20,000 nucleotides of DNA. Source: an uncultured virus (IMG/VR IMGVR_UViG_3300030117_002316). Lineage: Duplodnaviria > Heunggongvirae > Uroviricota > Caudoviricetes. Position numbers and translations under genes: made by a program. Positions 3,839 through 20,000 of the stretch are shown here, piece after piece (the first letter of the stretch is position 1; each line of letters starts with the position of its first letter). The stretch lies in the IMG/VR virus record IMGVR_UViG_3300030117_002316, positions 45,015 through 65,014 of that record. The stretch is one strand, 5' to 3'. The notes under the pieces are model-generated. The model made no database searches. It was not told where the DNA came from and saw nothing but the letters and a program-made list of their open reading frames with translations.

Positions 3839-6800
3839 ATGAGTGACAACACTTGGGCTTATACGCCCATTCCGCTGACTACAGGAAGTATAGTAGAAGA
3901 GGAAATGTTAAGAGAGCGAAGAGATAAAGCTCTTCGGACAGTAGAAAAAATCCCCTTCTATAAAGATACACCTGATTATGCAGCAGCATTTGAATCTCCC
4001 CTTATCTTCCAAGATATAGATTCAGGAGAAATTGTCAGGGGCATGATGCATACAGCAGAAGCTTCTAGGCAACAAATGAAAACTGAACTCACTAGAGGTT
4101 TTACTTCCAGAGATAAGGGTTTCCAGCAAATGGTTTCCCAGCAAGCAGTAGGTGGTAGAGACTTAGAAAAATATGAAAACACTATTTTGGATTTAACCGA
4201 CGCACAAGAAGAAATCTTAACGTCAGGTGCTGAAGGTCCGCAATGGAATCTTGAGTTTTGGAATTATTCGGTAGATGATATTCCAATTTATGATTTAGCT
4301 GTAGGTGGACCAGAAGATATACTAAACGATGAGCCACCAGAGGGATGGAGTGTAGACTCAGCTATAGAAGTCTTTAAGGAATCAGATCCGGAATTATACA
4401 ATATTATGTCTCTATCTTTAGGTGGAGATTCTGGTATTGCTGAAATTGTTAAGGATGCTAGAAACCCTATGGAGTTCTTTGTTAAGCTTCAGCAAAGACA
4501 ACAGCTCCTTGCTATTACTGAAAGTCAACAAGAGTTTGATAGAAGAAGCGGATGGTTCGGAAGACAATACGAATGGGGTAAAAACTTTATTGTAAATGGT
4601 ATTTTAGATGATCCAGATATGGCAGGATCTATCGCTCTTTCTCTAGGTTTATTAGTTACAACAGGTGGTATTGGAACAGTAGGAGCTATAGCTGCTAAGG
4701 TAGGACAGACAGCCTTGAGAGGATATAAGTTCGCAAAGGCAGGCAGAGCTGCCAGAGTAGCGGGTAGAGCTTTAGCAACTAGTGCAAAATACGGACGACA
4801 GGCCCAACATTGGATGCCAGAAAACTTAGGACCAACTTTAGTTAAGAGCGTCTTATTTAAGAATAGGTATCAAAGCTGGAGCGGATTAAAAAGATTTTCT
4901 GTAAATAGACTAGCTGACTCGGCTGAAGGTACAATTAGTGGTGGTATTGCAGAGTTCTTTAACCAGAATAGAATGAAGGGACTTGGGATTACTGATGATA
5001 TCAGTTACACCTCAGTCTTAGCAGAAGCAGCAGTAGAAGCTATGGTGTCTCCTATGATTAACCCCGGTATGGGCCAAGCTATGAAATTAGTTGGAGCCGT
5101 CTCTGCTGTACCCGGAACACTGGGAGCGATGGCTTGGGAAGGAACTATAGGAAAAACTGAACTAGGAGAATTCTTAGGAACTCTTGGAGAGAAAACTATA
5201 AGTATGTGGAATCCTGATTCTGTTATTACTTCTATGGATGCCTACGATAAGAAAGAAGAAATCTTTGCATCTATGAATTCACTATTAGTAGAAGGTGAAT
5301 CTGTAGGAAAGTCTTTAGATGAAAATGAATTATTAGCAGGTCTTTTAGAGACCCTCAAAGTAACTACAGAACTAGATGATCTTACTTTTCTTGATAAGAT
5401 AAACGGTGCTTTAGGAGAGCTAATCCTAGCTAGAGATAATGCAACGGGTACTCAAAAGAAAATGACTGGTCTTGAACTCGCTATTGGGTTAGCTAATCAG
5501 TTGGCTACTAAAGATCAAGACATCAAGGCAGCTATGCAGGGAGATAACTATACTGAGTTTATGTCGGTCTTAGGAACCCAAGTAACTATAGCACAGAATG
5601 CTAGAAGAGAAAACAAAACTATAGATGAGTATTTAGATGATGTGAATGAAAAAGGAAACTATTTCGATCTTCTTCCCGATGTTCTAAAGGAACGGGTTTA
5701 TAAAGAAAACGGCGGCAAAGCGGTAGTAGATAAACTTACTGATAAAGCAAAGAGAGAAAAGGCAGCCGAGATACAGCTTGAGATTGTGAAGAAAACTAGA
5801 GAAGTTCACAACAATTTCCAAGATAGAACAGACGAACAGACAAATAAAATTGAAAAGATTGAAAGCGACGCTAAGAAAGTTGCTAGGAAGCATAAGGTAA
5901 ACCCTCCTGTTATTACCGTTGTTGAAGAGAAAACAGATACAGACTTAACAGATACAGACTTAGCTGATACAGAAGAAGAAGCCATAGTAGAAAAAGAACC
6001 TTCTTCTGGAATGATGCAGCACCAAGAAAACATGGACAAAATTAAAAAGGGTAGAGCAGAGTTAAGAAGGGTAAAAGAAGAACTTAAGAAGAAACATGAT
6101 AATGCTTCCGATGCTGACGCGAAAGAAGCTCTTGAAACAGACATTAAAGAAATTGATAACCTTTTGTCAGAAATGGCCGAACTAAGTAGGAAAGCTACTG
6201 AATCAATGAATGTTTATTTAAGAGAATCGGGGCAGGACAAGAAGCTGATTGAATTAGGTAGGACTCTTTCTACAATTGTAGCAGATGTTAAAAAGTTTGA
6301 AACAGATAAAGTTAAGCCTTGGGAACAAAAAATGCATAAATTCGCTAAACCAAGGCTGGGGATACAGCAAATACAAATTAGGTTTATGCGTGAAAACTTT
6401 AAAGAAGAATATCCAGATGGTCTTCGCTATTCAGATTTAAACTCGGATGAACAAGCAGCTATAAATGATGCTATAGAAGTTCTTGAGGGTAGGGGAAGTA
6501 AGTATTTAGAAAGAGTTAGGGACGGCGAGAAGATAAGCATTAAACAATTGAAGCAAGTTGTCGAAAGAATTGGCAATAGAATGAAAAAAATCCACGATGA
6601 TTTTGAAAAATCCTCAGAAGGACGAGAGTGGGCTGATCATGTAGAAAAACAGAATAGAGCATTAGCAGATTACCAAGTTGCTTTCGCACAATACCAACAA
6701 GAGAACATGGTTAGTGAAGTTATCCGCATGGCGCAAGTCAGGGGCATTGCTGAAACACAAAAACTTAGAAGAGCAAAAGAAGCTCAGCTAAAAGGAATGA

Positions 6801-9800
6801 GAAAAACCGTAGATCAATTTATTAGTGAACATGTTGCTGCTAATCCAGATACCCCCATTTCTGCTAAACAAGTTATAGATAGACTGCCTAGATGGTCAAA
6901 GTTAAGAAAGAAACTTGAGAGTAACAGAAACAAGGGTGAGTCTTCTATTAATGTTGCTGAATTAAAAACTATGATTGATGAAGATTTTGCCGACATGAAA
7001 AAGAATATTCGAGTAGGAAAGCAAGACCCTAGATACAGAAGATTTAAAAGATCAGACGCTGTTAAAGATAGATATAAAGGTCGGTTTGCTAATGAAGTTT
7101 CTGATAGTGAGATTCTTGATGTGGACTATGATCAAGATTGGTTGGTTCAGAATATTGAAATAGGATCTCCTGTTAAGAGTGGAGCTTTATTTTCTATAGA
7201 ACAAGACTCCAAAGCGTTTGCAGAGTTTAAAGCAAACCTATCTGATTTGTCAAATACGGTTGGAGCAATAGACAATGAAGGAACTATTTCTGCTTGGAGA
7301 CTTACTACAAATATGCCTGAGTATTTCTGGGACTTAGGTCTTCCGCTTCACCTTATATTCAGAGAAGCAATGATTGATCCAGAGGGAACTGAGGGAGCGA
7401 GTAAAAAAGGAATTGCTACATATTGGTCAGGCAACGAGGAATTCTCCCACGCTAGGTTTGACTATGCTACGGTAATGAAAATTCTAAACACATGGCAACA
7501 GATTACTAAATCCAGATTGGAAGGAATAGTAGCAGATCACGGTAAGAACATCGCATCAGAACTATTAGAAGAACTTTTAGAAGAAGGAAGCTCTTCTAAT
7601 TTACCAAACTTACACAGAACAGTAGAGTTTTTAAATAACGTAATAGAAGCTGATAGAATATTTAACAAAGAACGATTTGAAGCAGACGGATTCATTTTAA
7701 CAGTTGATGAAGAAACTGGATTCCCTGCATCATTTGCTAAACAAACTGACGGCCATAGATTTGTAGGTGCTGTTAAAAAAGCTATCCACCAAAGAGTTGA
7801 AGTTTTAATGGGACGGAGAAAATATCGAGAAGCTCTTCGTGGGTTAATAGGCCTCGATCCAAAGAAAAAATTTGAGCGCGAATCTCCGGAAGCATTGAAT
7901 AGTAGAATAGCTCAGGAAACAGCCGACATTACAAGTTATATTATGTCAGAACTTTCAGATCTTTTAAATACAGTGGGACCAGAACATCTTAATTATATAG
8001 AATATACTATTGAAGGATTTGGTAACGGAGAGATTTCGTGGTCCTCTCCTAAACAAGCGGGGGATGGGATTGTTGATACCATTATTGGAAAGCTTGTTCC
8101 TGAGAAGAGCAGGCTTTCAGGAGTAGGAGAAGTACCAGATATCCCAACTACAGAATCTAGAGTAATAGGACAATCTGTCAGAACTGCTGCTCCTTTAGAG
8201 GCAGATACAAATGCAGCGGCTCCTGTACCTACTTGGGAAATTAGAAGAGCAGTAGAAAATCATAAGTTCAGATTACGGGTTAGGGAAGTTTTAAAAAGAG
8301 CTGAATCAGGTAAACCTTTAACCCAAGCTGAAAAAGATATCTTATATAACAAAGCACACGCTGAATATAAAGAATCTAGACTTAAGGATAAGATGGATCC
8401 AGTAGCTGACGAAATGGATGTATATGTCGTCCCTCAGATTATAGGAGGCCATCTTCAGGAAAGGATAATGACAAGAGGAGAAGCTAAGGAATTCATGTTA
8501 GAGATTTTCTTAGATATGGCTCATGTTAGTTACTCCTTCATTCAAGATGCTCAGACTATTGCTAACGGTGGAACTCTTAGATTTAAGAATACTGCTGAGA
8601 ATCCACAGCCACTGGCAATAGCCGGACTAAATGTAGGATACGATAATATTGTTCCTTGGGGACGTTTAGGAGAAACCCTTGCTCTGGAAGAGATGTCTCC
8701 CAATTTAAAGGGGATGACTGAAACAGTAGCTACTGCTCACTTAGCTTGGTTGGCCGAACGTAAAGAAAAATGGTTAGCTAATAATCCGGGCAAGGAATGG
8801 AATATAAATGAAATCCTAAGTGACTCAAATCAAATTGACCAAGTAGGTAGTGGACTCCAGATTACTACATTACTTTCCCGTATAGGTGATGAGGGGGTTG
8901 CTAGACAGCTTGGTGAAATAGAAGCACTATTAGCTGGCGACAATGAAAACAGGTATGAGTTTTTAGATGAGAATGGAGATGCTAAAGTAGATGAAGACGG
9001 AAACTTTATTAGCTTAGCTTTAGAAGATATATACGTTAATAGTGGCTTGGGTGCTGTCGCTGCCATGAGAGGGAAGCATTCTGATAATGAGTTTATTCAG
9101 GGCTCTGGTCAGTGGAATACCGTAGTATTTAAATGGCTGGCAGACAATAATATCAATACCGCAGAAGATTTTAGAAATGCTCTTGCTACTATGGAAGGTC
9201 AAGAATTAAAGAAGGCTAAGGCTTGTAGAGAATTCTTTAAGATTCCTGTCTTGCGTCGTTTATATGGTGGTGGTCTTGATTCTTGGAAATTAGAGTTTAT
9301 TGGGGCAAACCCTAGATCTCGTGAAAAGATAAAAGATTTAGAGGCAGCTTTTGCAGATGAGAATTTAAAGTTTACTGACGAAGAATTATTAAACTTAGGT
9401 AAGTCTTGGTTAGGCCACGCTGGTAAAACTGTAGGCCATATCCTTGATGCTGCTATGGGCTTTGAGGGCACGATGAGAAAGAAGGCAATGTCTTTCTATA
9501 CTCAAGGCAGAAGCTCACAAATGCTTTCTGAGGCGTGGAGAGATATTGTACAATCAACTACGATTCCTGCTAGGGATAGCGAGACTGCTCAGGGGGCACA
9601 GGAGTTGGTAGGTGAGGACGGCGGAATTCATGTTATGGACCGCATCGAGCGTGTTAAGAGAGACTTAGATGCTAAATTAGATTGGTTGGCTGAGAGAATG
9701 CCCGGAGATCCTGATAAAAATAGAATTGAATTAGAAGAAAAGTATCAGGATAGATGGGGTAAAGCAAGAGAGTTTATAGAAGAAGTAGAACGCAAGGGTG

Positions 9801-12800
9801 AGAATTTAAATGACGGCAGCCCTAACTGGGAACGTTTACAGGAAATACTTCACGGTAATACTATGAGTTGGGAAAACATTCGACTGTTTAGAGCTACGAA
9901 TATTCTAAACGCAAGTGCATATAGTTTGAATATGCAACGAATGAAGCAAGTAGCTAACGATTTTGGATTCCCTGATTTTGATCCTGAAGACTGGATGGGA
10001 CTTGAAAACCAACTATTATTCCACTTAAACCTCCCAACACAACGTTCTCCAAGATCCTATAGTGTAGGTGGATTAGATACTCACGGTATCTTTGCAAATA
10101 GAGTAGCAGTAAATCCTGAAAAGTTTACTGCTTTCATGCAAGAAGCTAAAGAAAGAGTATTGCGAGAAGAGGGACGAGAGTTTACAAGAGAAGATTTTGA
10201 AGAAGCTCTTGGAGACTGGTTAGAAAATAGAGATCCAGATGCTATGGGTATGTTTGATATGAAGGATAATATCTTTAAGGGAGAAACTCGAGAAGATGTG
10301 GATGCCGAATTAGATAGGCTAATGGATATCGATCAGCTTCTTTATATGGCAGGAGAAGATACTTTAGATCCTAAACTATTCCCAGACTACCATGCAGAAA
10401 GCAGTGAGATAGCAGTAATAGATAGTTTAAATAGGATGTGGTATGAGCATAATGAAAAAAGATTCCGTACTCCAGAAGGAGAAACTGATAGGACTATAGC
10501 AAGCGAAATAGAGTTTGAGGAAAGAATGTTAGCTAGCGGAGAACACGGCAGGGCTATCTTACTCAACAGAGCTAAAATTCTTGGTGGTTATAGAAGCTCT
10601 AAAGTTGCTAAGGCTATGGGCGGAGCTAAGGTTGAATACCACAGACGAGAATACAGTGCTTCTGAAGCTATTGGAACTAAAGAAGAACATGATTTATATA
10701 TGTCTACCGTAGCTCCTCAGGGTCCGTTGTCTTTAACTCCCAAGTATAAACGAATGTCTTATTTCAATAGAGGAATCCCCGCTCTTCAAAGAGAAGGAGT
10801 TCAGAGACAGATAAACGAAGTAATGGCTCCTATTGCCAGAATTGATCCAACGTTAGCAGATACCGCTATCGATGCAAGAGTAGGAGATACTACTAACAAG
10901 GGAGTAAGTATCTTTGAAGATCATCCAGCATTGTTAGGATGGAAGCCGCCTTGGAAAAGAGAGAATCTTCCAATGCCAAGACCTATCAGGATTGATGAAC
11001 TGTTAGAGCTTAATATTGATGATGAGATTGGACGCAAGGCTGTTACCATTCTTCAGGATATGAGAGAGTGGGCTTCTCTTAGACCAGACGTACTTGAAGA
11101 TTTAGAAAGTCCTGAGGGATTGATATATTGGTACGTTACTAGAGAGATAGAACGTCTTAGAGAATCCCAGCTTAATGATTTGCCCGCATATGACGATTTT
11201 AATACAACGGAAGAAGAAGGGCTTGCTTATGCGAGAAGATATAGAGAGAAGTGGTTGAAGGGCTTACACGATCTTACTCATTTCTCCAGAGACATTAAAT
11301 ACGGATCAGCTAAGGGATATACTTTGTCTGATAGTGCTAGAGAACTATCGGTCCAAGCTGCAAAGTATGGGGAAGAAAACATTACAGAGCCAGAATGGTT
11401 AGAGCTTTTGACATCTAGAATGTCTGAGAATAATCCTAGAGGTATTGGTTTGTCCTCGCCTACTAGATTAGATAAAGCACTATCGTTCATTCTTCCTAGA
11501 GAAAACGTAATATTAATAAATAAGTTGGGACAGAACGGAGCTAAAATAGAAACAAACGAGTTAAAAATGTTAGCTCAGTTGATACAGTCTACCGACTTTA
11601 ATCTCCATCTTTTAAGTGTACTGTATACAAACGAAATACTTCCTAGTGTTTTAAAGGAGTTTACGGTTACTCTTCCAGATGGGAGTACAGTTAAACCCTA
11701 TGCTGATAAGAAGTTTAAAGCCTTAGATAGCGAGGGAAATATACGACGTAACTCTAAGGGTGAAGTAATTGAATTAGCTATGTGGGAAGATCCTAATCTA
11801 TGGGAACAATATATAGATCCTAGTCACATCCATGCTATTATCGCTCAAGCTAAAGAGTGGGTAAAGAAGAACGGAAAGGATGACATTGTATTTGATACTT
11901 TGATTGAGACCCAGATTACAAGTGATCCTAAAGTAGCTGGCGGTAAGATGGAAAAGATGAAAGTACATCTTGCTTCTTCGACTCCTGATGCTGTTGGTGG
12001 CAGGCAAGGATCAAAGCTTATGCCTCACGTAATGGGTGGTAGTGTATTTAGAACTGTCAATACGCAGACCGAAGTTACAGGTAAGGGAACACTGGCCCTT
12101 ACTCCAGACAAGGCATTAGAATTATTTGCATACTTAGAATCTATGCCAGTAATTATGAAATCCCGAAGATCTCAGTGGGGGAACATTGCACTTGGGTTTG
12201 AACGAGATCCGGTAACCGGTCTTCCTAGAGAAGTCCAACCTGTTTCAAGAAGTATTGAAGAAGGTCTTGGACATAGCGAACGAGAGATTAGAGAAGCAGA
12301 GATTAAACGAAGCAATGCTCTTGAAAGAATCATAGCCACTAAGGAAGAAACAGGAATTAACGTTAGGATGGTTGCAGATGAGACAAGAACTACTGAGGGT
12401 GGTGCTATAGTTCAAGTTGTAGATTTGGATCACTATTCTAAAGGAGACCATGCTGCAAGAATGGGCCGAAGAGATTCTTGGTTTGAATCATTCCTTAGTC
12501 CGATTGAAAAACAAATTGGATACTTAAAGGCTACAAATATTCATTCAGGAACCTCTCCTGCCTTATTAGCACAACTAGAATCTGTAGTAGAAGGAGCTAG
12601 AGAAGCAAATCTTGCAGACGACGTAGACGGAGATTTAAATGCAGCTGTAGCAATGTGGTTAGGTATTATGCTTCAGTTAGATGATTGGAATAAGTTTATA
12701 CAATTAAAATCATACGGACCAATCTTTAAAACTTTCATTGGTCAGGATAGGTTCTCTAAAGCAACCAATGCTGAAGCTTTTGCTCAAGCTAAAAAATTAG

Positions 12801-15800
12801 CCCGACAAATTAGACAGGTTGCGGGAATAGACTGGCGTGGTGGAGGACTTACTGGACAAAGGCATACGAATTTAATAAACGCAATAAGAGAATGGGCTTC
12901 GCATGCCGCAGAGGAAGAGGGATTAAATGCAGAACTTTCTCCATCAGAAAACTTTAAACAGTGGGTAGCAGAAAATAGAAACACTGTGAGAAAGAGTCTA
13001 GGGATAGATGTTGTAGATTGGGAATCATTAGGCTTTACTTTAGAAAACGATGAGTTAGTATTTGAAGGTATTGGAGATAGCAGAGATCCGGATGTGCCTG
13101 CTGAAGAAGAACTTAGATATATTGTAGAATATGCTATAGGCAAAGAATTATTAGATGTTGAACAAGATAGTAATATCACAACATTTGAAACCGATGAATC
13201 AAGATTAAACTCTACGGGTAAAGATTTAATTCGCTTAGTAAAAGATCCTGATGAATTTAGAAAAGCTGTTAACCGTACTGGAGACATGAACCTTCGTCGA
13301 GTTGCGTCTGATTTAGATGGACTGGAGGGACAAGTATCCCCTCGAAATCTTGAAAGGCTTAGAGCGTTAGTATCCAGAATGTGGGCAATCAACCCAATGA
13401 ATCTTCTTGATTTAGAAATAGGCAGAGACTTTGTAGCTAGAGAAGGAAAGCCTAGAGTAAAAAGATCCGAAGATGGTAAGTTTGTAATACGGATGGGAAA
13501 TAAATTAGACACTCCCCTTAATGACCCAAATGTTGCGTTAGTATTTGCGCACGAACTAAGTCATATGGGTAGAATGAAGTGGGTAGCAGATAATAGTGGA
13601 ACATGGAGACAGTGGGTAGATCTCTATCACAGTAAGGCAGGAAGAACTCTATTAGCTAAAATTGTTCAAGCTTGGCACGGAGGACAGTGGACAGCTGTTG
13701 CTGAACAGGAATATAATTCCTACTTGAAAGATCCAGAAGAATTTATAGCTGCGTTAACTTCTTATTATTTAGTTAACGATTCCCTTCCTGCTCTTGAATT
13801 AGACGAGAACGAAGGCAGAGTTCTGGGAAGGGCTGATTCTATTATTGATCGTATTTTAGATTTTGTAAGACAGCATTTCTTAAGAGTAGCTTCAGTCCTT
13901 ACAAACTTCCACTACGAAGATCCTAAACTTGCAGGACATGTTGAATCCTTAATACAGAAAACACTGGGATGGGATCCTGAAGGAAAGAAAGCATTCACTG
14001 AAATACAAAACGAAGGTACTACTCGTGAAATGTTCTGGGATAAAAGATTTGAAGATCCTGCTAATGATTATATCTATAGCTTAGATGAGCTTCAAACAAA
14101 AATCAAAGAGCACAGTGACTTGGCTGAATTGGGAGAAGACAGAGACGATGCCCAAGATTCTAGATTTCTTAGATTAGATGAAGAGCTTAATGATCCAAGA
14201 TCTGGTGCAGATCACATGCTGGCAGCAGGGCTTTCAAGATATGATTATGAAATAGCCCATGCAGAAAATATGGAAAGATTTGCTGGTCCTAACGGAACGC
14301 TAGACTTATCCGCTATGATGAAATCTATTGATACAAGTAGAGGAGACGCTGTAAACATGACAAGTATGGCGGCTGCTTTACAGTACGCTATGACAAAATT
14401 AGATGACACATACGGTGCTCAATTCCGTCAGGGTGGTGGCGTTGTTCTTCATAAGATTATGAAGGCGGCAACAATGATGCTATCTATGGGACACGGAGAT
14501 CCTGTTAAGTGGGCTAGAGGATTAGCAGACTTAACCGTAGGTAAAACAGGAGCTAACCATACTTGGAATGGTCCTCATCCTTTTGAGGCATTATTGACAA
14601 TGTTAATAAATGATGACATTGCTACAACTATTGGACAGTACACTAATGTACGGGGTACACCGTCTGTTAATCGTAATGTTGTGGGAATGATTGCTACATA
14701 TCAGGAAAGAATCATAGCGTCCCAAACAAAAATCACAAACTTGCTCCAGCCTTGGATGACTAAATTCTTAGGACACGAGGCACACTTTACAACAAAGGCC
14801 AAAGAAAGAAGTGCAAAAATTTGGGATGCTGTTTACTTTGAAATTATGCGCAAGACCGAAAACCCAAACCACGAAGTAGAACTATCAAAGCTTGTTGAAG
14901 ATGGCATGGGAGTAGAGTTAGCTGGTAAGATTAAAACAGAAATAGAAAATATTGCTTTATCATTGTCTAAGTTTATGCAGGACTATATGGTTGCGGGCAA
15001 AGAACTTGGGGTTATCAGTGAGCACACAGCAGACGATACTCACACCCTTCCCTACAAAATGACAAAACGTTTAAACGAATACGATGCTAGATCTGGATTT
15101 ATGAATAACATGGGTACAATGCTTCAAGATAAAATCATAAACACAGAAGAATTAATAGATCCTGTCGTAATGTATTGTGGAGGTCTTCTTCCTAGATTTG
15201 ATACTCTTAAAGGTCTTAAGAATGATTTAGAAGAAATAAAGAATGTAGATAACGGAAGCCTATTCCAGATGATTGCTTATAAGGCAGCAGAAGCTGCTAA
15301 TAAAGCAGAAGGTAAGGACATAGAAGACAGAGCAATAGTGGCAGGTAGAAAGCAGGCTGTTGTTAATCAGTTATATTCTGCGGATGATCACGTTGCTACA
15401 AATGCTTTAGAACACTTTAGACAGGGTGTTTTAACAATCATGCGGGAAATGGGACATAAGAGACTTACTGTAAGTGAACTTAAGAATGACCATAATATTA
15501 ATTGGGATGCTTTTAAAGATAGGTATGAAAGAGCTGCTTCTAAAAATCATGTAGTCCAAGGAGACAGAATACAGGCATTAGACAGCCCAGCATTGGATGC
15601 AATAGTTCCAGACTCTATTCACTACTCCCCCGGAAGAACAACCGCAAGAAAACACCATGTAATGAAAATTAGAAACGCAGTAGATCTTCACTTACATAAC
15701 TTAATGAATCGTGCGTCCGCAGGTATGTACTATACTTGGGATATGTGGTCTATGCCTACTGTTCTTGAAGCAGCCTCTGATCCAGTAATCAGACCTCACC

Positions 15801-17866
15801 TTATTCTTAGTCCTAGAGATATTATGGATGATATGAAAAAAGGCAGAGGCGATAAGATGTTTGAAAGACAGATGATGGTAGATGAGTTTAATATCTTTGG
15901 AGATGTATCTGATCTTCTGAATTTATTCGAAACGGTAGCTAGTAGAGGACCGGGAGAAACCTTCTATAACTACGACGGAACTCCCGTTTCTAGAGAAACC
16001 CAAAACCACATGGTTAAGTCTGCTCAGGTTCTTAGGGGTAAGCACGATGTTACAAGAGGAATTAAGCACTCAGCTGAAGGACCAAGTAGTACTGAAAATA
16101 TCTTTATGCAAATGGCTCCGGGCATTACTAGAACAGTATTCGGAGGAAACCTTGCAATGGCAACTGCTACTGTTGAAGGAATGATGAACGTCCTTCAGGA
16201 AGCTTTGGGCAAGGGTAACATTGTAAACGCACTGCGTGGAATCTTTGCTCCTATCTTAGGTCTTAGTCGAGAGGGACAGGAAAGAGTTGCTAGAGATCTT
16301 GTCCATACCGTAGAGGCTTTAACTAAGGGACACCTTCCTGATCACGAAATGCCAGCTAATGCAATACAACAGAATTGGGCAGTAAAGGCTGTAAACTTTA
16401 CGGGTAGACAGGCAATGCGACCTGCCCAGCATATGTTGAAAACTATTGCAATGTCTAGAGCTGTATCAGCTAGAAACTTTATTACAGACAATCTTTTACA
16501 TAAGACAACTAAGGGTAAAGACGGATCCCGTGTTCCCCGTCTTGAAAGATTGGCTCAGTTAATTAGGGACGAACCTTTAGGGGACGATCCCAAAGCATTA
16601 AGAGATAGAATGCGTAAGGCAGGATTTGGTACGATATTAGCAGGAGACCTCCCCCTTATTTCATATATGTTAAGAGCGGGAGTTTTAAATCTTGAGGACG
16701 GATCCTTTGATAACCTTCAGTCTATGGTTAAAGAAGGAACACAAGAACACAGGTACTACAGTCCGGGTGAGATGTTAGGTAAGTTACACAGGAGTGGTCT
16801 TGAAGTAACCGATCCCGAATATCAATCAAGAAAGAAGATTATCTCTGGTCTTAGGTTTATTGAGAAGGGCTATATCGAAGAAGTGCTGGTGGCTCCTAAT
16901 GCCTTTGATATCTTTACCCCAATGGTCAGTAAGACAGGAGAGGTATCTGGTGTGGGTGCAATGGATACCTTGTTTGAAATCTTCCGGCGATACCCCATGC
17001 TCTTCGTTAGTCAGCATATTTATCGTAAGGCCAATCGTCTTGATTTTACTCGGTTTGCTTTTGGTGCAGCTAGTATGATTATGTTAGATATGGTTTACAT
17101 GCTTGCATTGAGATTAGCTATGGGTGCTTATCCTGAAGACATCTGGGATGAGTTTGAGAAAAACCCTGTACAGTTTACAATGCTGTATGCCAGTAGGCTG
17201 CCTATCCTTGGTCGATACATGGGATTCTTAGCAGAAGCTACAGCTCAGGTTACAAGCATGGCTCAAGGTAGAACCACCAGACAGCCCGGTGGATTTGTCC
17301 CAACGGCAGCAGTATTCACAGCCTTGGGTGGAGGATTAAAAGCAGGACAGTCTTGGTTAGACGACGAACCCCATAAGTGGCAGGACACGATTAATGCTGC
17401 TAGGGTTGTTCCCCTGCTGGGCGAGGGTATCCTTCGCTTAGGGATCTACACAGCAGCCGGAGACAGCATTACAAGACGTAAGCACAGCTCAGGTGGAGGA
17501 GGGTCCGGCTCAGGCTCAGGAGCCCCTATACACTACGGAGTGACCTCTCACGCTCTCAATCAGGGATATAATGTAGAATTACGTAAGCTTCTAGAGGAGT
17601 TCTCTGGGCAGCAGCTTAGGTGGCCTCAGTATGAGGCTCAGCGAAACATGAGTATTCCATTTAGGGATACTACTGTGCCTGAGGTTCCAAAGGAAATGGA
17701 AGGAATGACTCCTCCACCAAGGATGCCCTCCACCTCTGTCCCAGAGCCCGCCCCAGCCCCCGCCTCGCCTCCCGTCCCCGCGCCGACTTCAGTTGAGCCC
17801 GATATGGTAGATCGCCTTAGAGGGCAACAGGGGACATCTGGTAAACTAGCAGACGCACTGGGGTAA
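3839..17866 (+). CDS. 4675-aa giant virion protein; putative virion-encapsidated T7-family RNA polymerase / polyvalent ejection protein with a zincin-type metallopeptidase motif
   Basis: Uninterrupted 14-kb ORF with a strong RBS. Motif A-like IDQVGSGLQI (D1667; T7 FDGSCSGIQH), LEDIY (D1730; T7 VQDIY), motif B REFFKIPVLRRLYG (R1797/K1801/Y1809; T7 RSVTKRSVMTLAYG), HELSH (H3238) plus EEFIA (E3300). Hydrophobic segments near both ends. Only two Cys found by eye. Confidence 0.8.
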   Translation: MSDNTWAYTPIPLTTGSIVEEEMLRERRDKALRTVEKIPFYKDTPDYAAAFESPLIFQDIDSGEIVRGMMHTAEASRQQMKTELTRGFTSRDKGFQQMVSQQAVGGRDLEKYENTILDLTDAQEEILTSGAEGPQWNLEFWNYSVDDIPIYDLAVGGPEDILNDEPPEGWSVDSAIEVFKESDPELYNIMSLSLGGDSGIAEIVKDARNPMEFFVKLQQRQQLLAITESQQEFDRRSGWFGRQYEWGKNFIVNGILDDPDMAGSIALSLGLLVTTGGIGTVGAIAAKVGQTALRGYKFAKAGRAARVAGRALATSAKYGRQAQHWMPENLGPTLVKSVLFKNRYQSWSGLKRFSVNRLADSAEGTISGGIAEFFNQNRMKGLGITDDISYTSVLAEAAVEAMVSPMINPGMGQAMKLVGAVSAVPGTLGAMAWEGTIGKTELGEFLGTLGEKTISMWNPDSVITSMDAYDKKEEIFASMNSLLVEGESVGKSLDENELLAGLLETLKVTTELDDLTFLDKINGALGELILARDNATGTQKKMTGLELAIGLANQLATKDQDIKAAMQGDNYTEFMSVLGTQVTIAQNARRENKTIDEYLDDVNEKGNYFDLLPDVLKERVYKENGGKAVVDKLTDKAKREKAAEIQLEIVKKTREVHNNFQDRTDEQTNKIEKIESDAKKVARKHKVNPPVITVVEEKTDTDLTDTDLADTEEEAIVEKEPSSGMMQHQENMDKIKKGRAELRRVKEELKKKHDNASDADAKEALETDIKEIDNLLSEMAELSRKATESMNVYLRESGQDKKLIELGRTLSTIVADVKKFETDKVKPWEQKMHKFAKPRLGIQQIQIRFMRENFKEEYPDGLRYSDLNSDEQAAINDAIEVLEGRGSKYLERVRDGEKISIKQLKQVVERIGNRMKKIHDDFEKSSEGREWADHVEKQNRALADYQVAFAQYQQENMVSEVIRMAQVRGIAETQKLRRAKEAQLKGMRKTVDQFISEHVAANPDTPISAKQVIDRLPRWSKLRKKLESNRNKGESSINVAELKTMIDEDFADMKKNIRVGKQDPRYRRFKRSDAVKDRYKGRFANEVSDSEILDVDYDQDWLVQNIEIGSPVKSGALFSIEQDSKAFAEFKANLSDLSNTVGAIDNEGTISAWRLTTNMPEYFWDLGLPLHLIFREAMIDPEGTEGASKKGIATYWSGNEEFSHARFDYATVMKILNTWQQITKSRLEGIVADHGKNIASELLEELLEEGSSSNLPNLHRTVEFLNNVIEADRIFNKERFEADGFILTVDEETGFPASFAKQTDGHRFVGAVKKAIHQRVEVLMGRRKYREALRGLIGLDPKKKFERESPEALNSRIAQETADITSYIMSELSDLLNTVGPEHLNYIEYTIEGFGNGEISWSSPKQAGDGIVDTIIGKLVPEKSRLSGVGEVPDIPTTESRVIGQSVRTAAPLEADTNAAAPVPTWEIRRAVENHKFRLRVREVLKRAESGKPLTQAEKDILYNKAHAEYKESRLKDKMDPVADEMDVYVVPQIIGGHLQERIMTRGEAKEFMLEIFLDMAHVSYSFIQDAQTIANGGTLRFKNTAENPQPLAIAGLNVGYDNIVPWGRLGETLALEEMSPNLKGMTETVATAHLAWLAERKEKWLANNPGKEWNINEILSDSNQIDQVGSGLQITTLLSRIGDEGVARQLGEIEALLAGDNENRYEFLDENGDAKVDEDGNFISLALEDIYVNSGLGAVAAMRGKHSDNEFIQGSGQWNTVVFKWLADNNINTAEDFRNALATMEGQELKKAKACREFFKIPVLRRLYGGGLDSWKLEFIGANPRSREKIKDLEAAFADENLKFTDEELLNLGKSWLGHAGKTVGHILDAAMGFEGTMRKKAMSFYTQGRSSQMLSEAWRDIVQSTTIPARDSETAQGAQELVGEDGGIHVMDRIERVKRDLDAKLDWLAERMPGDPDKNRIELEEKYQDRWGKAREFIEEVERKGENLNDGSPNWERLQEILHGNTMSWENIRLFRATNILNASAYSLNMQRMKQVANDFGFPDFDPEDWMGLENQLLFHLNLPTQRSPRSYSVGGLDTHGIFANRVAVNPEKFTAFMQEAKERVLREEGREFTREDFEEALGDWLENRDPDAMGMFDMKDNIFKGETREDVDAELDRLMDIDQLLYMAGEDTLDPKLFPDYHAESSEIAVIDSLNRMWYEHNEKRFRTPEGETDRTIASEIEFEERMLASGEHGRAILLNRAKILGGYRSSKVAKAMGGAKVEYHRREYSASEAIGTKEEHDLYMSTVAPQGPLSLTPKYKRMSYFNRGIPALQREGVQRQINEVMAPIARIDPTLADTAIDARVGDTTNKGVSIFEDHPALLGWKPPWKRENLPMPRPIRIDELLELNIDDEIGRKAVTILQDMREWASLRPDVLEDLESPEGLIYWYVTREIERLRESQLNDLPAYDDFNTTEEEGLAYARRYREKWLKGLHDLTHFSRDIKYGSAKGYTLSDSARELSVQAAKYGEENITEPEWLELLTSRMSENNPRGIGLSSPTRLDKALSFILPRENVILINKLGQNGAKIETNELKMLAQLIQSTDFNLHLLSVLYTNEILPSVLKEFTVTLPDGSTVKPYADKKFKALDSEGNIRRNSKGEVIELAMWEDPNLWEQYIDPSHIHAIIAQAKEWVKKNGKDDIVFDTLIETQITSDPKVAGGKMEKMKVHLASSTPDAVGGRQGSKLMPHVMGGSVFRTVNTQTEVTGKGTLALTPDKALELFAYLESMPVIMKSRRSQWGNIALGFERDPVTGLPREVQPVSRSIEEGLGHSEREIREAEIKRSNALERIIATKEETGINVRMVADETRTTEGGAIVQVVDLDHYSKGDHAARMGRRDSWFESFLSPIEKQIGYLKATNIHSGTSPALLAQLESVVEGAREANLADDVDGDLNAAVAMWLGIMLQLDDWNKFIQLKSYGPIFKTFIGQDRFSKATNAEAFAQAKKLARQIRQVAGIDWRGGGLTGQRHTNLINAIREWASHAAEEEGLNAELSPSENFKQWVAENRNTVRKSLGIDVVDWESLGFTLENDELVFEGIGDSRDPDVPAEEELRYIVEYAIGKELLDVEQDSNITTFETDESRLNSTGKDLIRLVKDPDEFRKAVNRTGDMNLRRVASDLDGLEGQVSPRNLERLRALVSRMWAINPMNLLDLEIGRDFVAREGKPRVKRSEDGKFVIRMGNKLDTPLNDPNVALVFAHELSHMGRMKWVADNSGTWRQWVDLYHSKAGRTLLAKIVQAWHGGQWTAVAEQEYNSYLKDPEEFIAALTSYYLVNDSLPALELDENEGRVLGRADSIIDRILDFVRQHFLRVASVLTNFHYEDPKLAGHVESLIQKTLGWDPEGKKAFTEIQNEGTTREMFWDKRFEDPANDYIYSLDELQTKIKEHSDLAELGEDRDDAQDSRFLRLDEELNDPRSGADHMLAAGLSRYDYEIAHAENMERFAGPNGTLDLSAMMKSIDTSRGDAVNMTSMAAALQYAMTKLDDTYGAQFRQGGGVVLHKIMKAATMMLSMGHGDPVKWARGLADLTVGKTGANHTWNGPHPFEALLTMLINDDIATTIGQYTNVRGTPSVNRNVVGMIATYQERIIASQTKITNLLQPWMTKFLGHEAHFTTKAKERSAKIWDAVYFEIMRKTENPNHEVELSKLVEDGMGVELAGKIKTEIENIALSLSKFMQDYMVAGKELGVISEHTADDTHTLPYKMTKRLNEYDARSGFMNNMGTMLQDKIINTEELIDPVVMYCGGLLPRFDTLKGLKNDLEEIKNVDNGSLFQMIAYKAAEAANKAEGKDIEDRAIVAGRKQAVVNQLYSADDHVATNALEHFRQGVLTIMREMGHKRLTVSELKNDHNINWDAFKDRYERAASKNHVVQGDRIQALDSPALDAIVPDSIHYSPGRTTARKHHVMKIRNAVDLHLHNLMNRASAGMYYTWDMWSMPTVLEAASDPVIRPHLILSPRDIMDDMKKGRGDKMFERQMMVDEFNIFGDVSDLLNLFETVASRGPGETFYNYDGTPVSRETQNHMVKSAQVLRGKHDVTRGIKHSAEGPSSTENIFMQMAPGITRTVFGGNLAMATATVEGMMNVLQEALGKGNIVNALRGIFAPILGLSREGQERVARDLVHTVEALTKGHLPDHEMPANAIQQNWAVKAVNFTGRQAMRPAQHMLKTIAMSRAVSARNFITDNLLHKTTKGKDGSRVPRLERLAQLIRDEPLGDDPKALRDRMRKAGFGTILAGDLPLISYMLRAGVLNLEDGSFDNLQSMVKEGTQEHRYYSPGEMLGKLHRSGLEVTDPEYQSRKKIISGLRFIEKGYIEEVLVAPNAFDIFTPMVSKTGEVSGVGAMDTLFEIFRRYPMLFVSQHIYRKANRLDFTRFAFGAASMIMLDMVYMLALRLAMGAYPEDIWDEFEKNPVQFTMLYASRLPILGRYMGFLAEATAQVTSMAQGRTTRQPGGFVPTAAVFTALGGGLKAGQSWLDDEPHKWQDTINAARVVPLLGEGILRLGIYTAAGDSITRRKHSSGGGGSGSGSGAPIHYGVTSHALNQGYNVELRKLLEEFSGQQLRWPQYEAQRNMSIPFRDTTVPEVPKEMEGMTPPPRMPSTSVPEPAPAPASPPVPAPTSVEPDMVDRLRGQQGTSGKLADALG
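5933..5973 (+). repeat. 15-bp coding tandem repeat (TDTDL x2 plus a partial copy)
   Basis: ACAGATACAGACTTA twice exactly, then GCTGATACAGA, in an acidic linker of the giant protein. Confidence 0.85.
8837..9268 (+). other. Single-subunit RNAP palm/fingers core (motif A, DIY, motif B) within the giant protein
   Basis: D-QVG-SGLQ at 8837, DIY at 9026 and R-x3-K-x7-YG at 9227-9268 occur in T7 order. Asp-to-Lys spacing is 134 aa versus 94 aa in T7 (D537-K631). Confidence 0.8.
13550..13750 (+). other. Zincin-like metallopeptidase motif within the giant protein
   Basis: LVFAHELSH (HExxH at 13550-13564) followed about 60 aa later by PEEFIAA (13736). This is the typical pattern of MPTase domains in phage polyvalent proteins. 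Confidence 0.75.
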
Positions 17867-17958: not shown

Positions 17959-18255
17959 ATGAAGAAGACAGTACTCATCGTACTGGTCGTGGCATTCCTT
18001 GTTATTGTACCACAGCGTGCTGTGCGTACAATCAATGAGTGTGTCATTGCCAACCTTGGCACATCCATCTTGGAGTGCCAGAGCGTTCGAGATGTCGCTG
18101 TGCTCGGCGAGTTCCTCGTCGAGAACACAGTCGACGGCTGGATTCCCTACCAGATCGGGTTGGATCTTATCGATCCAAGCTGCTGGTTTGGTTCGCCATC
18201 TCACGAGATGGATGATCCGAACGAGCAGTACGACATGCCTCAGTGGGTGCACTGA
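17959..18255 (+). CDS. Hypothetical 98-aa protein with an N-terminal signal/membrane anchor
   Basis: RBS AAAGGAGACA at 17946-17955 favours ATG 17959 over the track's 17911. MKKTVLIVLVVAFLVIVP is a basic-hydrophobic leader and the C-terminus is acidic. Confidence 0.75.
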   Translation: MKKTVLIVLVVAFLVIVPQRAVRTINECVIANLGTSILECQSVRDVAVLGEFLVENTVDGWIPYQIGLDLIDPSCWFGSPSHEMDDPNEQYDMPQWVH

Positions 18256-18467
18256 TGGCAAAGCGTAGCTTCAAAGTCCACGATGTTGTGACCCTGCCGC
18301 CTCGCGGTGGGGCACAGCATCGTGGACGAGGCATCGTCGTCAAGGTCACGAAGAAGAAGGTAACTGTGTTACCGATCCCCGACCACTCGTCGGGGAACCT
18401 CACGTTTAAGCCAGACCAGCTCCGGTACTGGCGAAAGGGCAACCGAAACCGGAGAATGCACGAATGA
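18255..18467 (+). CDS. Hypothetical 70-aa basic protein, possible KOW/SH3-like beta-barrel
   Basis: TGATG stop/start overlap with the upstream gene. Pattern FKVHDVV...GRGIVVKV...KVTV...FKPDQL resembles small SH3/KOW folds. Lys/Arg-rich. Confidence 0.7.
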   Translation: MAKRSFKVHDVVTLPPRGGAQHRGRGIVVKVTKKKVTVLPIPDHSSGNLTFKPDQLRYWRKGNRNRRMHE

Positions 18468-18500: not shown

Positions 18501-18523
18501 ATTCTATATAGGAGGCCTGATGG

Positions 18524-19030
18524 ATGATCAACATCAAGGCTATCGCTTGTGTTCTCGCAGCAATTGTCTGCGGGTTCCTGACTATCGCGTGTGCGTACAT
18601 GGCATATGATGCTTTCGCACACATGGACTTCATGTTCGGTCCTTTGTTCGTCGCTGCCGCTGCTGGCAGTGCGTGCATGGTCTGGCTGTTCTCGGGTATT
18701 GTGCACCTTGACATCTACAGCACAGCCTACGATGAAGGCTGGGATGACGGCTGGGCACAACGAGACGAGCAGTATTCTTGTCTCCTCAAGGAAGCGGTCA
18801 GCTCCCGGGAGTGGGTACATCCCTACCTCAGGCGGCTGAAGGCTTTGGACCCTCCTCTCATGGTCCAACCTCCCGGGGCGGACAGCCCAGCCAATCCTTT
18901 CTATGTTGGCGAGTTGTGCCGAAGGCAACGGCCTATCGACCCTCTCGTCAAGCTCGGACAGGGCGACTACGAAAGATGCGACAAGGACATCATCGTCCCG
19001 CCTATCATTGAGGATGACATGAACGACTGA
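18524..19030 (+). CDS. Hypothetical 168-aa membrane protein (two N-terminal TM helices)
   Basis: GGAGG RBS at 18511-18515. Hydrophobic stretches AIACVLAAIVCGFLTIACAYMAY and FMFGPLFVAAAAGSACMVWLFSGIV, then an AYDEGWDDGW helix. Confidence 0.8.
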   Translation: MINIKAIACVLAAIVCGFLTIACAYMAYDAFAHMDFMFGPLFVAAAAGSACMVWLFSGIVHLDIYSTAYDEGWDDGWAQRDEQYSCLLKEAVSSREWVHPYLRRLKALDPPLMVQPPGADSPANPFYVGELCRRQRPIDPLVKLGQGDYERCDKDIIVPPIIEDDMND

Positions 19031-19040
19031 CAATCTCAAC

Positions 19041-19208: not shown

Positions 19209-19237
19209 TCCCAGTACGGTGCTGGGATACACTTTTT
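19209..19237 (+). terminator. Intrinsic-terminator-like hairpin immediately upstream of the second RNAP gene
   Basis: TCCCAGTA-CGG-TGCTGGGA followed by TACAC and TTTTT (19233-19237). Confidence 0.45.
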
Positions 19238-19260
19238 AAATTCCGTTTGGAGACCATCGC

Positions 19261-20000
19261 ATGGCGATTACGCTTACGGAAAAACGTGTGGTCATTAAGG
19301 AAGCAGCTGAAATTGCTATCCGAGACTACTTCACGGAGCACAAGAGGCTGAAGGTGTTCATGGACAAGGGACAGGATCCTATCAAGATCCTTGACCAAGC
19401 TACCATGCCCGTCATCATCGCAGTTGAGAAAGCTGTGCCTGCCTCTCACTTCGACCTTCTTAAATCCCACGACACCAACGTTGTGCAGAAAGCTATCGCA
19501 CACTTTGTTGCGAAATGGGACGGAGCTATTGAGCCCCGTGCTAGCTTGCATCACGATAGTGCACCTAAGTTGGAAGGCATGAGTAGGGTGAAGATCTCAC
19601 GACGTGACGATCTGAAGCCTACTGCCCATGCAGTGGAGGCATGTCAATACCTCTCATCTGTTGGGCTTACTGTCGACCAAGACTTGGCAGCCATCCTTCT
19701 CGAGTATCGGGAAACACTGGATGGCTATGATCCCGACAGGGACACAGACGAGCAGGAGAACTGGTTCCCTCGTCGTGCTGTTGAGGAGATGAATCGTGTG
19801 GGCAGCTCTGTATTCTATACGGAGTGGAGCCTGCTCGATAGTCGTACACGTATGTACCCGGACTGCCTTGCGGCATTCCACTCGACGTTCTGCAAACGTT
19901 CGAGAGGTATCATCTGTGGGGATACTAGTTGGCCGATCTCCTCTGCTCAGCTTGAGCAGTGGGGCAGTGATCTTGGTGAAGATCTCGGTCTTGATGACCG
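19261..20000 (+). CDS. T7-family DNA-directed RNA polymerase, N-terminal part (short N-terminus; runs off the window)
   Basis: Not in the ORF track because it has no stop in the window. GGAG RBS at 19249-19252 and an in-frame TAA at 19237. It translates MAITLTEKRVVIKEAAEIAIRDY...AVEACQYLSSVGLTVDQDLAAIL...SVFYTEWSLLDSRTRMYPDCLAAFHSTFCKRSRGII. This aligns by eye with T7 VYKAINIAQNTAWKINKKVLAV and AIWFPYNMDWRGRVYAVSMFNPQGNDMTKGLL. Confidence 0.78.
   Translation, partial: MAITLTEKRVVIKEAAEIAIRDYFTEHKRLKVFMDKGQDPIKILDQATMPVIIAVEKAVPASHFDLLKSHDTNVVQKAIAHFVAKWDGAIEPRASLHHDSAPKLEGMSRVKISRRDDLKPTAHAVEACQYLSSVGLTVDQDLAAILLEYRETLDGYDPDRDTDEQENWFPRRAVEEMNRVGSSVFYTEWSLLDSRTRMYPDCLAAFHSTFCKRSRGIICGDTSWPISSAQLEQWGSDLGEDLGLDD

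Follow-up and report, generated by a model that had tools for sequence, protein, structure and literature searches.

A giant, cysteine-poor protein with single-subunit RNA polymerase motifs in a T7-like marine podophage

The virion RNA polymerase (vRNAP) of phage N4, gp50, is a 3500-aa protein in which the mini-vRNAP occupies aa 998-2103 and a HELVH sequence follows downstream of the polymerase at position 2228. According to the parts of Iyer et al. (2017) that treat these enzymes, N4-like vRNAPs are limited to N4-like phages and prophages, and an MPTase domain is always fused to N4-like RNAPs; the relevant portion of a further account (PMC4496689) has the late genes of N4 transcribed by the host RNAP. 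In Thermus phage P23-45, according to Chaban et al. (2024; PMC10770324), an RNAP is fused to a 5002-aa tape measure virion protein, and this virion RNAP transcribes the pre-early genes, one of which encodes another phage RNAP that is not part of the virion.

Here we describe a 4675-aa protein, referred to below as the giant, from a marine podophage; coordinates are those of the window, meaning the whole 20,000-nt stretch of DNA analysed. Like N4 gp50, than which it is 1175 aa longer, this protein is of giant size and nearly devoid of Cys (2 of 4675 residues vs 0 of 3500), and it has a long helical N-terminal part, a candidate single-subunit RNAP (ssRNAP) module with an RxxxKx7YG sequence, a HExxH zincin signature and a long C-terminal part. 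Its gene likewise lies among late and virion genes and is paired with that of a small T7-like RNAP of the early region, which in N4 consists of gp15 and gp16 and in this phage is a single 599-aa protein (mini-RNAP). Unlike the N4 system, however, the giant has no detectable sequence similarity to gp50 outside the motifs, its motif A reads DxxxSGLQ as in T7 rather than EADGVTNG, its HExxH sequence lies about 1190 aa downstream of the candidate motif C instead of about 280 aa, and it is encoded by a T7-like, single-strand genome with an extra canonical T7-like RNAP. The giant also departs from the T7 RNAP family in being unmatched by PF00940, in having its module embedded in a 4675-aa protein, in the longer insertions between its motifs (134 vs 94 aa from A to B and 242 vs 173 aa from B to C) and in a candidate motif C that lacks the HD dipeptide. 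With T7 gp14, gp15 and gp16 it shares its Cys-poor, large and helical character and a place in the virion block, and it has hydrophobic segments, but there is no sequence similarity, the genes here follow the terminase rather than lying between nozzle and fibre, and Pfam found no lytic transglycosylase domain in the giant. The logic proposed for the giant, a polymerase on a giant virion protein, is that described for P23-45; the enzymes of that siphovirus are two-barrel and related to cellular RNAP, whereas those of the podovirus studied here are single-subunit, right-hand polymerases, in the giant a candidate one. A literature search that had most subscription journals outside its reach found no description of the giant family.

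Genome context and the giant family

The phage genome is 65 kb long and T7-like throughout. Pfam identified T7-type portal, scaffold, capsid, tube, nozzle, terminase and primase-helicase genes, and all genes of the phage are carried on a single strand, which bears out the original prediction of a single-strand, T7-like layout. The genome context of the Schitoviridae is absent, the portal, capsid, tube, nozzle, terminase, primase-helicase and canonical RNAP all being of T7 type, and the giant shows no PHROG or hhalign similarity to N4 gp50; the phage is not a member of that family. Three polymerase-type genes are present, encoding the giant, the 599-aa mini-RNAP and a canonical T7-like RNAP of 814 aa. 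The proposal of a dual-RNAP system thus stood as regards a motif-bearing giant and a separate mini-RNAP but not as regards there being two only, as the canonical enzyme makes three. The giant gene closes the late block downstream of the terminase, the mini-RNAP gene is the largest in the G+C-rich left region, and the canonical RNAP gene lies about 8 kb beyond the latter. All three genes are also present in genome G001 (49% identity to the phage in the giant and 41% in the mini-RNAP), and near-complete genomes with the full trio number two. The two halves are not chimeric, a possibility raised with the original prediction: a single contig of 15,520 nt spans the G+C shift, and the giant-to-mini-RNAP order recurs in three other contigs; L010 is among the sequences with this order.

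The giant gene (P0001) occupies 3839..17866 on the + strand as originally described, and we propose that its product is a virion-packed, ejected polyvalent protein. Other assemblies contain homologues 4661 and 4740 aa in length and, with a cut-off of E ≤ 1e-3, 48 cluster representatives of the family, of which about 19 have lengths of 3397-5694 aa; an assembly artefact is thereby ruled out as the source of the open reading frame. Across 19 giants aligned with MAFFT (median pairwise identity 22%), no more than 25 of the 4675 columns are invariant, including D1667, R1797, K1801, Y1809, N2021 and the HExxH/E3301 residues discussed below. A Kyte-Doolittle scan located hydrophobic segments near both ends of the protein, at aa 261-286 (4619..4696, + strand) and at aa 4406-4428 (17054..17122, + strand), the first of which adjoins a nearly invariant DPD at aa 258-260. 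A tblastn search of 50,697 phage records with giant aa 1101-2300 returned 0 matches, and scans of IMG/VR with the same segment, the mini-RNAP alignment and P0008 did not find relatives.

Cys makes up 0.04% of the giant (two residues) but 1.13% of the 34 other ORFs (binomial P 1e-20); relatives of the giant contain 0-2 Cys. The giant ends a Cys-poor gene block downstream of the terminase, in which the five ORFs directly upstream of it have 0, 0, 0, 2 and 1 Cys vs 1.13% elsewhere in the genome. Counts are similarly low in N4 gp50 (0/3500) and in T7 gp14, gp15 and gp16 (1, 0 and 0), as against 12/883 in T7 RNAP and 9/599 in the mini-RNAP. Cys depletion is common to the giant, its five upstream neighbours and known ejected proteins but not to cytoplasmic enzymes of the same genome, and we take it as a mark of an ejected protein.

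RNA polymerase motifs, zincin signature and fold comparisons

Within the giant, an RNAP-like module extends over aa 1478-2054, from R1478xR1480[VI] to D2051xxG2054 (8270..10000, + strand). Motif A, D1667QVGSGLQ (aa 1667-1674, 8837..8860, +), has a pattern shared with T7 and N4 gp16; D1730-I-Y1732 (9026..9034, +) is the equivalent of T7 DIY (569); and motif B, R1797xxxK1801xxxxR1806xxY1809GGG (9227..9274, +), which reads REFFKIPVLRRLYGGG from aa 1797, has the R-K-Y spacing of known enzymes. The patterns and this spacing can be said to match T7 because the same regular expressions recover D537GSCSGIQ, DIY (569) and R627xxxK631x7Y639G from the real T7 RNAP sequence. The motif A pattern DxxxSG[IL]Q is also found in N4 RNAPII gp16 (DATSSGLQ, at 75), and RxxxKx7YG occurs with the same spacing as in the giant in T7 RNAP, N4 RNAPII gp16 and N4 vRNAP (R1663/K1667/Y1675). 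Among the 19 giants, conservation is 19/19 for D1667, 17/19 for S1671 and 12/19 for G1672 in motif A, 18/19 for D1730 and 16/19 for Y1732 in DIY, and 19/19 each for R1797, K1801 and Y1809 in motif B. Motifs A, DIY and B are thus T7-type and sit where the first reading of the giant had placed them, and the patterns of motifs A and B fall on invariant columns. Judged by its residues, motif A is of the RNAP type, with Gly at D+5 as in T7 and no Glu steric gate; DNA polymerases have a Glu steric gate in this motif.

Further elements were assigned by eye. A candidate motif C region, N2021xxN ... G2043xxxF2047xxxD2051xxG2054 (9899..10000, +), parallels T7 N781...HD812SFG, a correspondence given by no aligner, and has no His before D2051; N2021 is present in 19/19 giants, D2051 in 16/19 and G2054 in 17/19, and an acidic residue, D or E, stands at 2050 or 2051 in 19/19. 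Similarly, [YF]K[FWH]R1478xR1480[VI], in which the two Arg residues occur in 15/19 and 18/19 giants, resembles T7 DWRGRV and is a candidate T/DxxGR equivalent, albeit one without the Gly and the leading Asp/Thr of the T7 sequence. Four additional motif-like correspondences follow one another in the correct order. When we shuffled the giant 20000 times, the motif A pattern arose in 144 shuffles and the motif B pattern in 651, whereas both patterns in order and 40-250 aa apart arose in 0/20000.

Downstream of the module, the giant carries a zincin-like metallopeptidase signature, H3238ELSH3242 followed by E3301-F3302 (13550..13744, +), which emerged from conservation: its H, E, H, E and F are each present in 19/19 giants. 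An hhalign comparison of the HExxH region of the giant with N4 gp50 2101-2500 aligned only 17 columns around HExxH (E 0.06).

Profile searches did not recover the polymerase module. The whole giant matched 0 families of Pfam and PHROGs at E ≤ 0.1, Pfam searches with eight slices gave nothing real at E ≤ 10, and when all six frames of the genome were searched with PF00940 at E ≤ 10, the other two RNAP genes alone were found. With giant aa 1560-2260, hhalign gave E values of 0.05-0.5 against T7, N4 mini-vRNAP, N4 RNAPII, the mini-RNAP family and the phage's own RNAP. The giant profile aligned to gp50 with E 0.078 over 32 columns and also had no PHROG match, nothing was found against T7 gp13-16 and the N4 66-kDa protein (gp14-16, E 0.06-0.68), and phmmer searches of PDB sequences with giant aa 1300-2700 and 3150-3420 found nothing.

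Structural comparison gave a partial match. Foldseek searches of two giant models against PDB, and of the first model against BFVD, yielded no match at E ≤ 1e-3; weak BFVD rows included 'large polyvalent protein' domains and two 'RNA polymerase' fragments at TM ≤ 0.15. The best ESM Atlas score, 0.75, was uninformative, and in a wide structural scan with a 1200-aa model the matches were taken up by the helical bundle that model residues 750-868 form. In an independent structural alignment of the giant model, T7 RNAP ranked 1 of 48,161 chains; the alignment starts at DIY, in register, and pairs both DIY and motif B of the giant with their T7 counterparts. In predicted models the motif B region superposes on T7 567-689. 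The palm was recovered in neither giant model, short strands lying near the candidate motif C without a matched palm.

The mini-RNAP and the interval preceding it

The mini-RNAP gene (P0056) begins at 19261. In the window it is an ORF of 246 aa at 19261..19998 (+) that is still open where the window ends, and these first 246 codons fill 19261..20000 on the + strand. The two ends of the contig share about 98 bp, and with the reading frame resuming at contig position 2 and occupying positions 2-1159 the complete protein has 599 aa. PF00940 matched weakly in 7/7 members of the mini-RNAP family (best E 3.2e-5), P0056 scoring 18 bits vs a cut-off of 22. P0056 matched phrog_414 'RNA polymerase' (E 3.7e-6) and, by hhalign, the phage's own canonical RNAP (E 3.9e-4) and N4 RNAPII gp16 (E 7e-5); N4 gp16 is also the best PDB match of the mini-RNAP. 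Conserved in the family are 'DSRTRMY', 'IDAAASGITL', 'MKPGIVAGGYGASG', 'NLTHAMDAL' and 'AIHDSVG', and the mini-RNAP carries motifs A, B and IHDS, the last as its motif C. On these sequence grounds the ORF at 19261 is a divergent homologue of T7- and N4-RNAPII-like RNAPs. Both its standing as a separate, minimal T7-like RNAP and the DxxGR-type region ascribed to it, 'LLDSRTRMY', are upheld.

The giant and mini-RNAP genes, both on the + strand, are separated by the expected 1.4 kb (17867-19260). In this interval lie a structured element that is conserved and three small ORFs, also on the + strand. The element, about 80 nt of the form G5...G5 - hairpin - C6..C6 (17866..17945, +), lies directly 3' of the giant stop and is present in a single copy in the genome. 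It recurs at the equivalent site in L010, L011 and L015, where a run of 36 nt hardly differs; RNAalifold found 19 pairs, in five of which both partners have changed, and the DNA fold has an energy of -17.5 kcal/mol (z -3.17). It lies upstream of the early region, where it would be a candidate for a hairpin-form early promoter like those of N4-like vRNAP. Contig breaks at the element in L009 and L011 were rejected as evidence of physical genome ends because co-occurring relatives share the 36 nt, which would break assembly graphs. The small ORFs encode 98 aa from an ATG after AAGGAG, with a hydrophobic N-terminus (17959..18255, +), 70 aa (18255..18467, +) and a hydrophobic 168 aa (18524..19030, +), the last followed by a hairpin at 19047-19062; the second is missing in a related strain, contigs of runs X3, X5 and X7 skipping 18256-18470. 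Searches for promoter-like repeats found 0 14- or 16-mers with three or more copies and, across 20 intergenic regions, no convincing common 18-mer, while Rfam gave 0 matches at E ≤ 1 and sigma-70-like sites numbered 2 vs 1.4 expected.

Possible roles of the giant protein

We give a probability of roughly 55% to the reading that the giant is a virion-packed, ejected polyvalent protein with a very divergent ssRNAP of the T7/N4 kind at aa ~1480-2055, its catalytic residues intact, and a zincin at aa 3238-3302. The gene, its family, the conservation of the motifs, the partial fold match, the Cys depletion and the synteny are established directly; packaging, ejection, catalytic activity and the order in which the giant polymerase is used we infer. 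According to this reading the giant would be made late and packed into the capsid with the neighbouring Cys-free proteins, a step suggested by its gene being last in the late block, since a polymerase made so late would be useful mainly if packed. Threaded into the cell at infection, it may start infection as a self-injected enzyme whose polymerase module would transcribe the first-entering, G+C-rich early region, including the mini-RNAP gene, with the canonical 814-aa RNAP taking over after the mini-RNAP. The succession of RNAP and HExxH, the same as in N4 gp50, counts in favour of an ejected polymerase, as do the size of the gene family, the invariant motif residues, the RNAP-type motif A, the Cys depletion and the conservation of the trio in G001. 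Against this reading stand the failure of every profile method to recognise a polymerase in the giant, the assignment by eye of motif C and of the T/DxxGR equivalent, and the lack of similarity to T7 gp13-16 and, beyond the motifs, to N4 gp50.

It seems unlikely to us that the giant functions as an ejection or internal-core protein with a module that derives from a polymerase but is inactive and exapted, for example to grip or ratchet entering DNA, early transcription being left to the host enzyme and the two free RNAPs of the phage. Several observations nonetheless favour this alternative: two free RNAP genes are already in the genome, profile searches of the giant fail, the palm went unrecovered in both models, and the candidate motif C is without the His that T7-like enzymes have there, with D2051 in only 16/19 giants. 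Against an inactive module, the catalytic and NTP-binding residues D1667, R1797, K1801 and Y1809, whose loss would then be expected, are invariant in 19 proteins at a median identity of 22%, and the acidic residue at 2050 or 2051 is universal among them. A helical ejection protein with a zincin but without polymerase ancestry, its motif and weak fold matches being coincidental, is quite improbable given the outcome of the shuffles, the position of the motif patterns on invariant columns, the first rank of T7 RNAP, with DIY and motif B each paired with its counterpart, and the four additional correspondences in correct order. We regard as very improbable an intracellular, non-packaged enzyme, such as a polymerase that serves late genes or primes replication and is fused to other activities; the inferred nature of packaging and the lack of similarity to T7 gp14-16 speak for it, but the giant shares its Cys depletion with five upstream ORFs and known ejected proteins, its gene terminates the virion and terminase block, and its architecture resembles N4 gp50.

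Returning to the packed and ejected polymerase, a tentative extension, which we consider doubtful, is a three-step cascade of phage-only ssRNAPs, in which the giant would start at the G5-hairpin-C6 element and be succeeded by the mini-RNAP and then by the 814-aa RNAP, leaving host RNAP dispensable. The giant would in that case perhaps help to pull DNA in, and the mini-RNAP would be the fused equivalent of N4 gp15 and gp16; N4-type and T7-type strategies would, if the cascade is true, share an ancestral 'ejected polymerase' state. Standard profile annotation misses enzymes of the giant's kind completely. If our reading of the giant is true, it would represent a new and very divergent RNAP of possible use in orthogonal transcription, and virion-delivered transcription would be wider than the N4-like phages, linking the T7 and N4 strategies.

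Genome layout and the polymerase-type genes

The window is the final 20 kb of a 65,014-bp virus contig (G000:C1:45015-65014) with a CheckV completeness of 97%. The contig ends share an overlap of approximately 98 bp, the ORF starting at window 19261 carries on in frame from contig position 2, and the junction of the ends is spanned by an independent 9050-bp contig (L009) at 99.95% identity. Consistent with the single-strand, T7-like layout put forward in the original prediction, the large genes all lie on the plus strand and the Pfam matches of 32 further ORFs describe T7-like phage content. A DUF932 gene comes first in gene order, followed by a canonical 814-aa RNA polymerase (RNAP) outside the window (contig 8269-10713, L001:8269-10713; PF00940, E 9e-77; phrog_414, E 1e-156), metallophosphatase and RusA, T7-type primase-helicase, DNA polymerase A, 5'-3' exonuclease and ribonucleotide reductase, T7-type portal, scaffold, capsid, tube and nozzle, a 1629-aa fibre, a T7-type terminase and, in order, ORFs of 245, 346, 213, about 1306-1312 (+196) and 4675 aa. 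Against RNAPs from cultured phages (Rhizobium, Nostoc, LUZ100), the canonical RNAP reaches no more than 28% identity. The terminase shows about 40% identity to its counterparts in T7-like pelagiphages and roseophages (38-46 kb). Given this T7-type gene content and these low identities, the phage is, judged by its sequence, a deep-branching T7-like phage enlarged chiefly by its post-terminase block. The same gene content, without similarity to N4 gp50, indicates that it is not a member of Schitoviridae, an alternative that had been raised alongside the original prediction. A 10-N scaffold gap at window 3096-3105 terminates the 1312-aa ORF (contig 44186-48124), and the same Cys-poor gene may continue in the 196-aa ORF (window 3227-3817).

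Three polymerase-type genes are present in this genome. Both ORFs named at the outset were recovered on the plus strand, one at window 3839-17866 encoding the 4675-aa giant protein (P0001) and one at 19261-19998, open at the window end, whose full product is a 599-aa mini-RNAP (P0056). The proposed dual-RNAP system thus holds for the giant's motifs and the mini-RNAP, but the canonical RNAP brings the count to three. As had been predicted, the mini-RNAP is by its matches a short, divergent T7-type RNAP: PF00940 matches 7/7 family members, below cut-off, phrog_414 'RNA polymerase' is matched at E 3.7e-6, and its hhalign E values are 3.9e-4 against the phage's own RNAP, 1.3e-3 against T7 and 7e-5 against N4 gp16. 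Its six homologues (44-60% identity) share the motifs DSRxRMY, IDAxASG, MKxxxxxxxYGAGG, PNVTHAMDAL and AIHDSVGVP, and N4 RNAPII 6dt7_B is the top PDB sequence match of the family profile (E 0.31). In size and affinities, the mini-RNAP resembles a fused counterpart of N4 RNAPII gp15 and gp16.

The same three polymerase-type genes recur in a related IMG/VR genome, G001 (62,786 bp, 93% complete). Its giant, with at least 3333 aa inside the locus examined, shares 49% identity with P0001; the conserved structured element that follows the giant, a pair of small ORFs, a mini-RNAP of 602 aa (41% identical) and a canonical RNAP (PF00940, E 8.6e-72) are present as well. On contig L010, the C-terminal end of the giant is followed by the element and by a mini-RNAP at 52% identity, and contig L011 begins at the element. 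G+C is higher in the early region (window 17001-20000 plus contig 1-5000; 0.50-0.57) than in the rest of the genome (0.37-0.44), a shift that is found again in the related contigs L015, L010 and L011 and is therefore a lineage trait rather than an assembly artefact. Together with this G+C jump and the synteny in relatives, a single 15,520-nt contig of sequencing run X1 bridging window 17477-19999 rules out the suggestion that the two halves are chimeric.

Polymerase motifs and predicted fold of the giant protein

A word-indexed search recovered homologues of the giant, one 4661 aa long at 49% identity and one 4740 aa long at 26%, and an exhaustive search with aa 1101-2300 as query returned 48 representatives at E<=1e-3 (39 at <=1e-10 and 24 at <=1e-30), none of them a named protein. 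About 19 are long (3397-5694 aa) and the remainder are fragments. By sequence similarity, then, the giant belongs to a real protein family. Searches of GenBank phages and a scan of IMG/VR with the giant protein sequence found no relatives, a later DNA-pattern scan of IMG/VR found one related genome, and a literature search found no description of the family.

In a MAFFT alignment of 19 long giants (pairwise identity median 22%, minimum 18%), 25 of 4675 columns are invariant, and 14 of these fall within aa 1284-2072. The predicted motifs D1667QVGSGLQ, D1730IY and R1797EFFK1801IPVLRRLY1809GGG lie where they had been placed; D1667, R1797, K1801, Y1809 and N2021 are kept in 19/19 giants, D1730 in 18/19, S1671 in 17/19 and Y1732 in 16/19. 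When applied as regular expressions to real sequences, DxxxSG[IL]Q also matches T7 RNAP (position 537) and N4 RNAPII gp16 (75), and RxxxKx7YG matches T7 (627), N4 gp16 (134) and N4 vRNAP (1663). Singly, these patterns arose 144 and 651 times, respectively, in 20000 shuffles of the giant; both in order within 40-250 aa arose in none of the 20000. Matched by eye rather than by an aligner, [YF]K[FWH]R1478xR1480[VI], N2021xxN and G2043xxxFxxxD2051xxG may correspond to T7 D421WRGRV, N781xxH and GxxxFxxxxHD812xxG, and their order agrees with T7. D2051 is present in 16/19 giants and an acidic residue at 2050 or 2051 in 19/19.

Pfam, PHROGs and a six-frame PF00940 search recognised no polymerase in the giant, which fails as a PF00940 member at the profile level. 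Profile comparison of the giant with known RNAPs, proposed as a check at the outset, missed it too: hhalign to T7, N4 mini-vRNAP, N4 RNAPII, the mini-RNAP family and the phage's own RNAP gave E 0.05-0.5. The proposed structural check was mixed. AlphaFold2 models were built of aa 1141-2340 (pLDDT 74.3, pTM 0.65) and aa 1520-2150 (pLDDT 69.3, pTM 0.41), and Foldseek found no match at E<=1e-3 in PDB for either model or in BFVD for the first. Of the 50 matches listed for the 1200-aa model, 5 fall outside a helical bundle, namely T7 RNAP (3e3j_B, 5.4; 8dh2_B, 5.1), yeast mtRNAP (8atv_A, 5.4; 6ymw_A, 5.3) and Taq Pol I (1jxe, 4.9). In all five, the giant's DIY aligns with DIY and its motif B with motif B, and the alignments extending further upstream begin at motif A.

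Features of the proposed ejected protein and the downstream element

The giant contains 2 Cys in 4675 aa, and nine relatives checked contain 0-2 each. In the genome's 34 other ORFs, which total 13,406 aa, 152 residues are Cys (1.13%); finding <=2 Cys among 4675 residues has a binomial probability of 1e-20. N4 gp50 has 0 Cys in 3500 aa and T7 gp14, gp15 and gp16 have 1, 0 and 0; T7 RNAP has 12 in 883 aa and the mini-RNAP 9 in 599 aa. The five ORFs between terminase and giant (contig 41735-48831, window up to 3817) hold 0, 0, 0, 2 and 1 Cys, or 3 in 2306 aa in total, and none has a match in Pfam or PHROGs. They probably represent the remaining ejection or internal-core proteins, sited after the terminase and not before the fibre. 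Hydrophobic segments of the giant lie at aa 261-286 and 4406-4428, and H3238ExxH3242 and E3301, downstream of the polymerase motifs, are invariant across the 19-giant alignment. In the giant's C-terminal region, a single-letter difference (A>G at 17476) separates two 61-nt run X1 contigs (window 17446-17506); this polymorphic site breaks the assembly at that point.

A structured element of about 80 nt, present once in the genome, immediately follows the stop codon of the giant (window 17866-17945). Across four phages its conservation far exceeds that of the flanking proteins. Its G5/C6 runs do not vary, and the stem of its inner hairpin co-varies (GGTTGC/GCAACC here, GGTCAC/GTGGCC in L011, GGATGG/CCATCC in L015); RNAalifold gives 19 pairs, 5 with changes on both sides, and the DNA fold has -17.5 kcal/mol (z -3.17). 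Two short run X1 contigs match its first 36 nt and then continue differently, into other hairpins with C-runs behind them. Because N4 vRNAP uses hairpin promoters, as stated in the available portion of PMC13492108, the element could by analogy be a promoter for the ejected polymerase; other candidate roles are that of a late-transcript terminator or of a site for packaging. After it come three small plus-strand ORFs and terminator-like hairpins, of which 7 were found in 17600-20000 versus 1.7 expected; such hairpins follow each of the small early ORFs and also immediately precede the start of the mini-RNAP (18471-18500, 19047-19062 and 19209-19227). Window 18256-18470 (215 nt, small ORF 2) is missing in a close relative from another study, where contigs of runs X3, X5 and X7 carry five other letters in its place.

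Comparison with known virion polymerases

The available text of Iyer et al. 2017 (PMC5512222) gives the order of N4 gp50 as a helical N-terminal region, RNAP, a zincin HEXXH domain (aa 2130-2448) and a C-terminal part; we located its HELVH at 2228. The parts of the giant follow this order too, without detectable sequence similarity to gp50, and as a member of the N4 vRNAP family it fails on both sequence and genome context. The proposal that it works like an N4 vRNAP draws on its motifs, the partial fold match, the architecture, the depletion of cysteine and the position of the gene. In the StenR_269 paper, as far as its available text goes, a vRNAP is no more than a guess from size, helicity and lack of cysteine. 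The original prediction had also offered an independent origin of virion-delivered RNAP, which we consider less likely than an N4-like architecture.

The best-supported reading, at a probability of roughly 0.55, is that the giant is a polyvalent protein which is packed in the virion and ejected, and whose active single-subunit RNAP module would initiate early transcription. The logic of such a virion polymerase would be shared with N4 gp50 and, from the portion of the P23-45 work available, with the tape-measure-fused RNAP of that phage, but here it would operate in a T7-like phage that also keeps both a mini-RNAP and a canonical RNAP.
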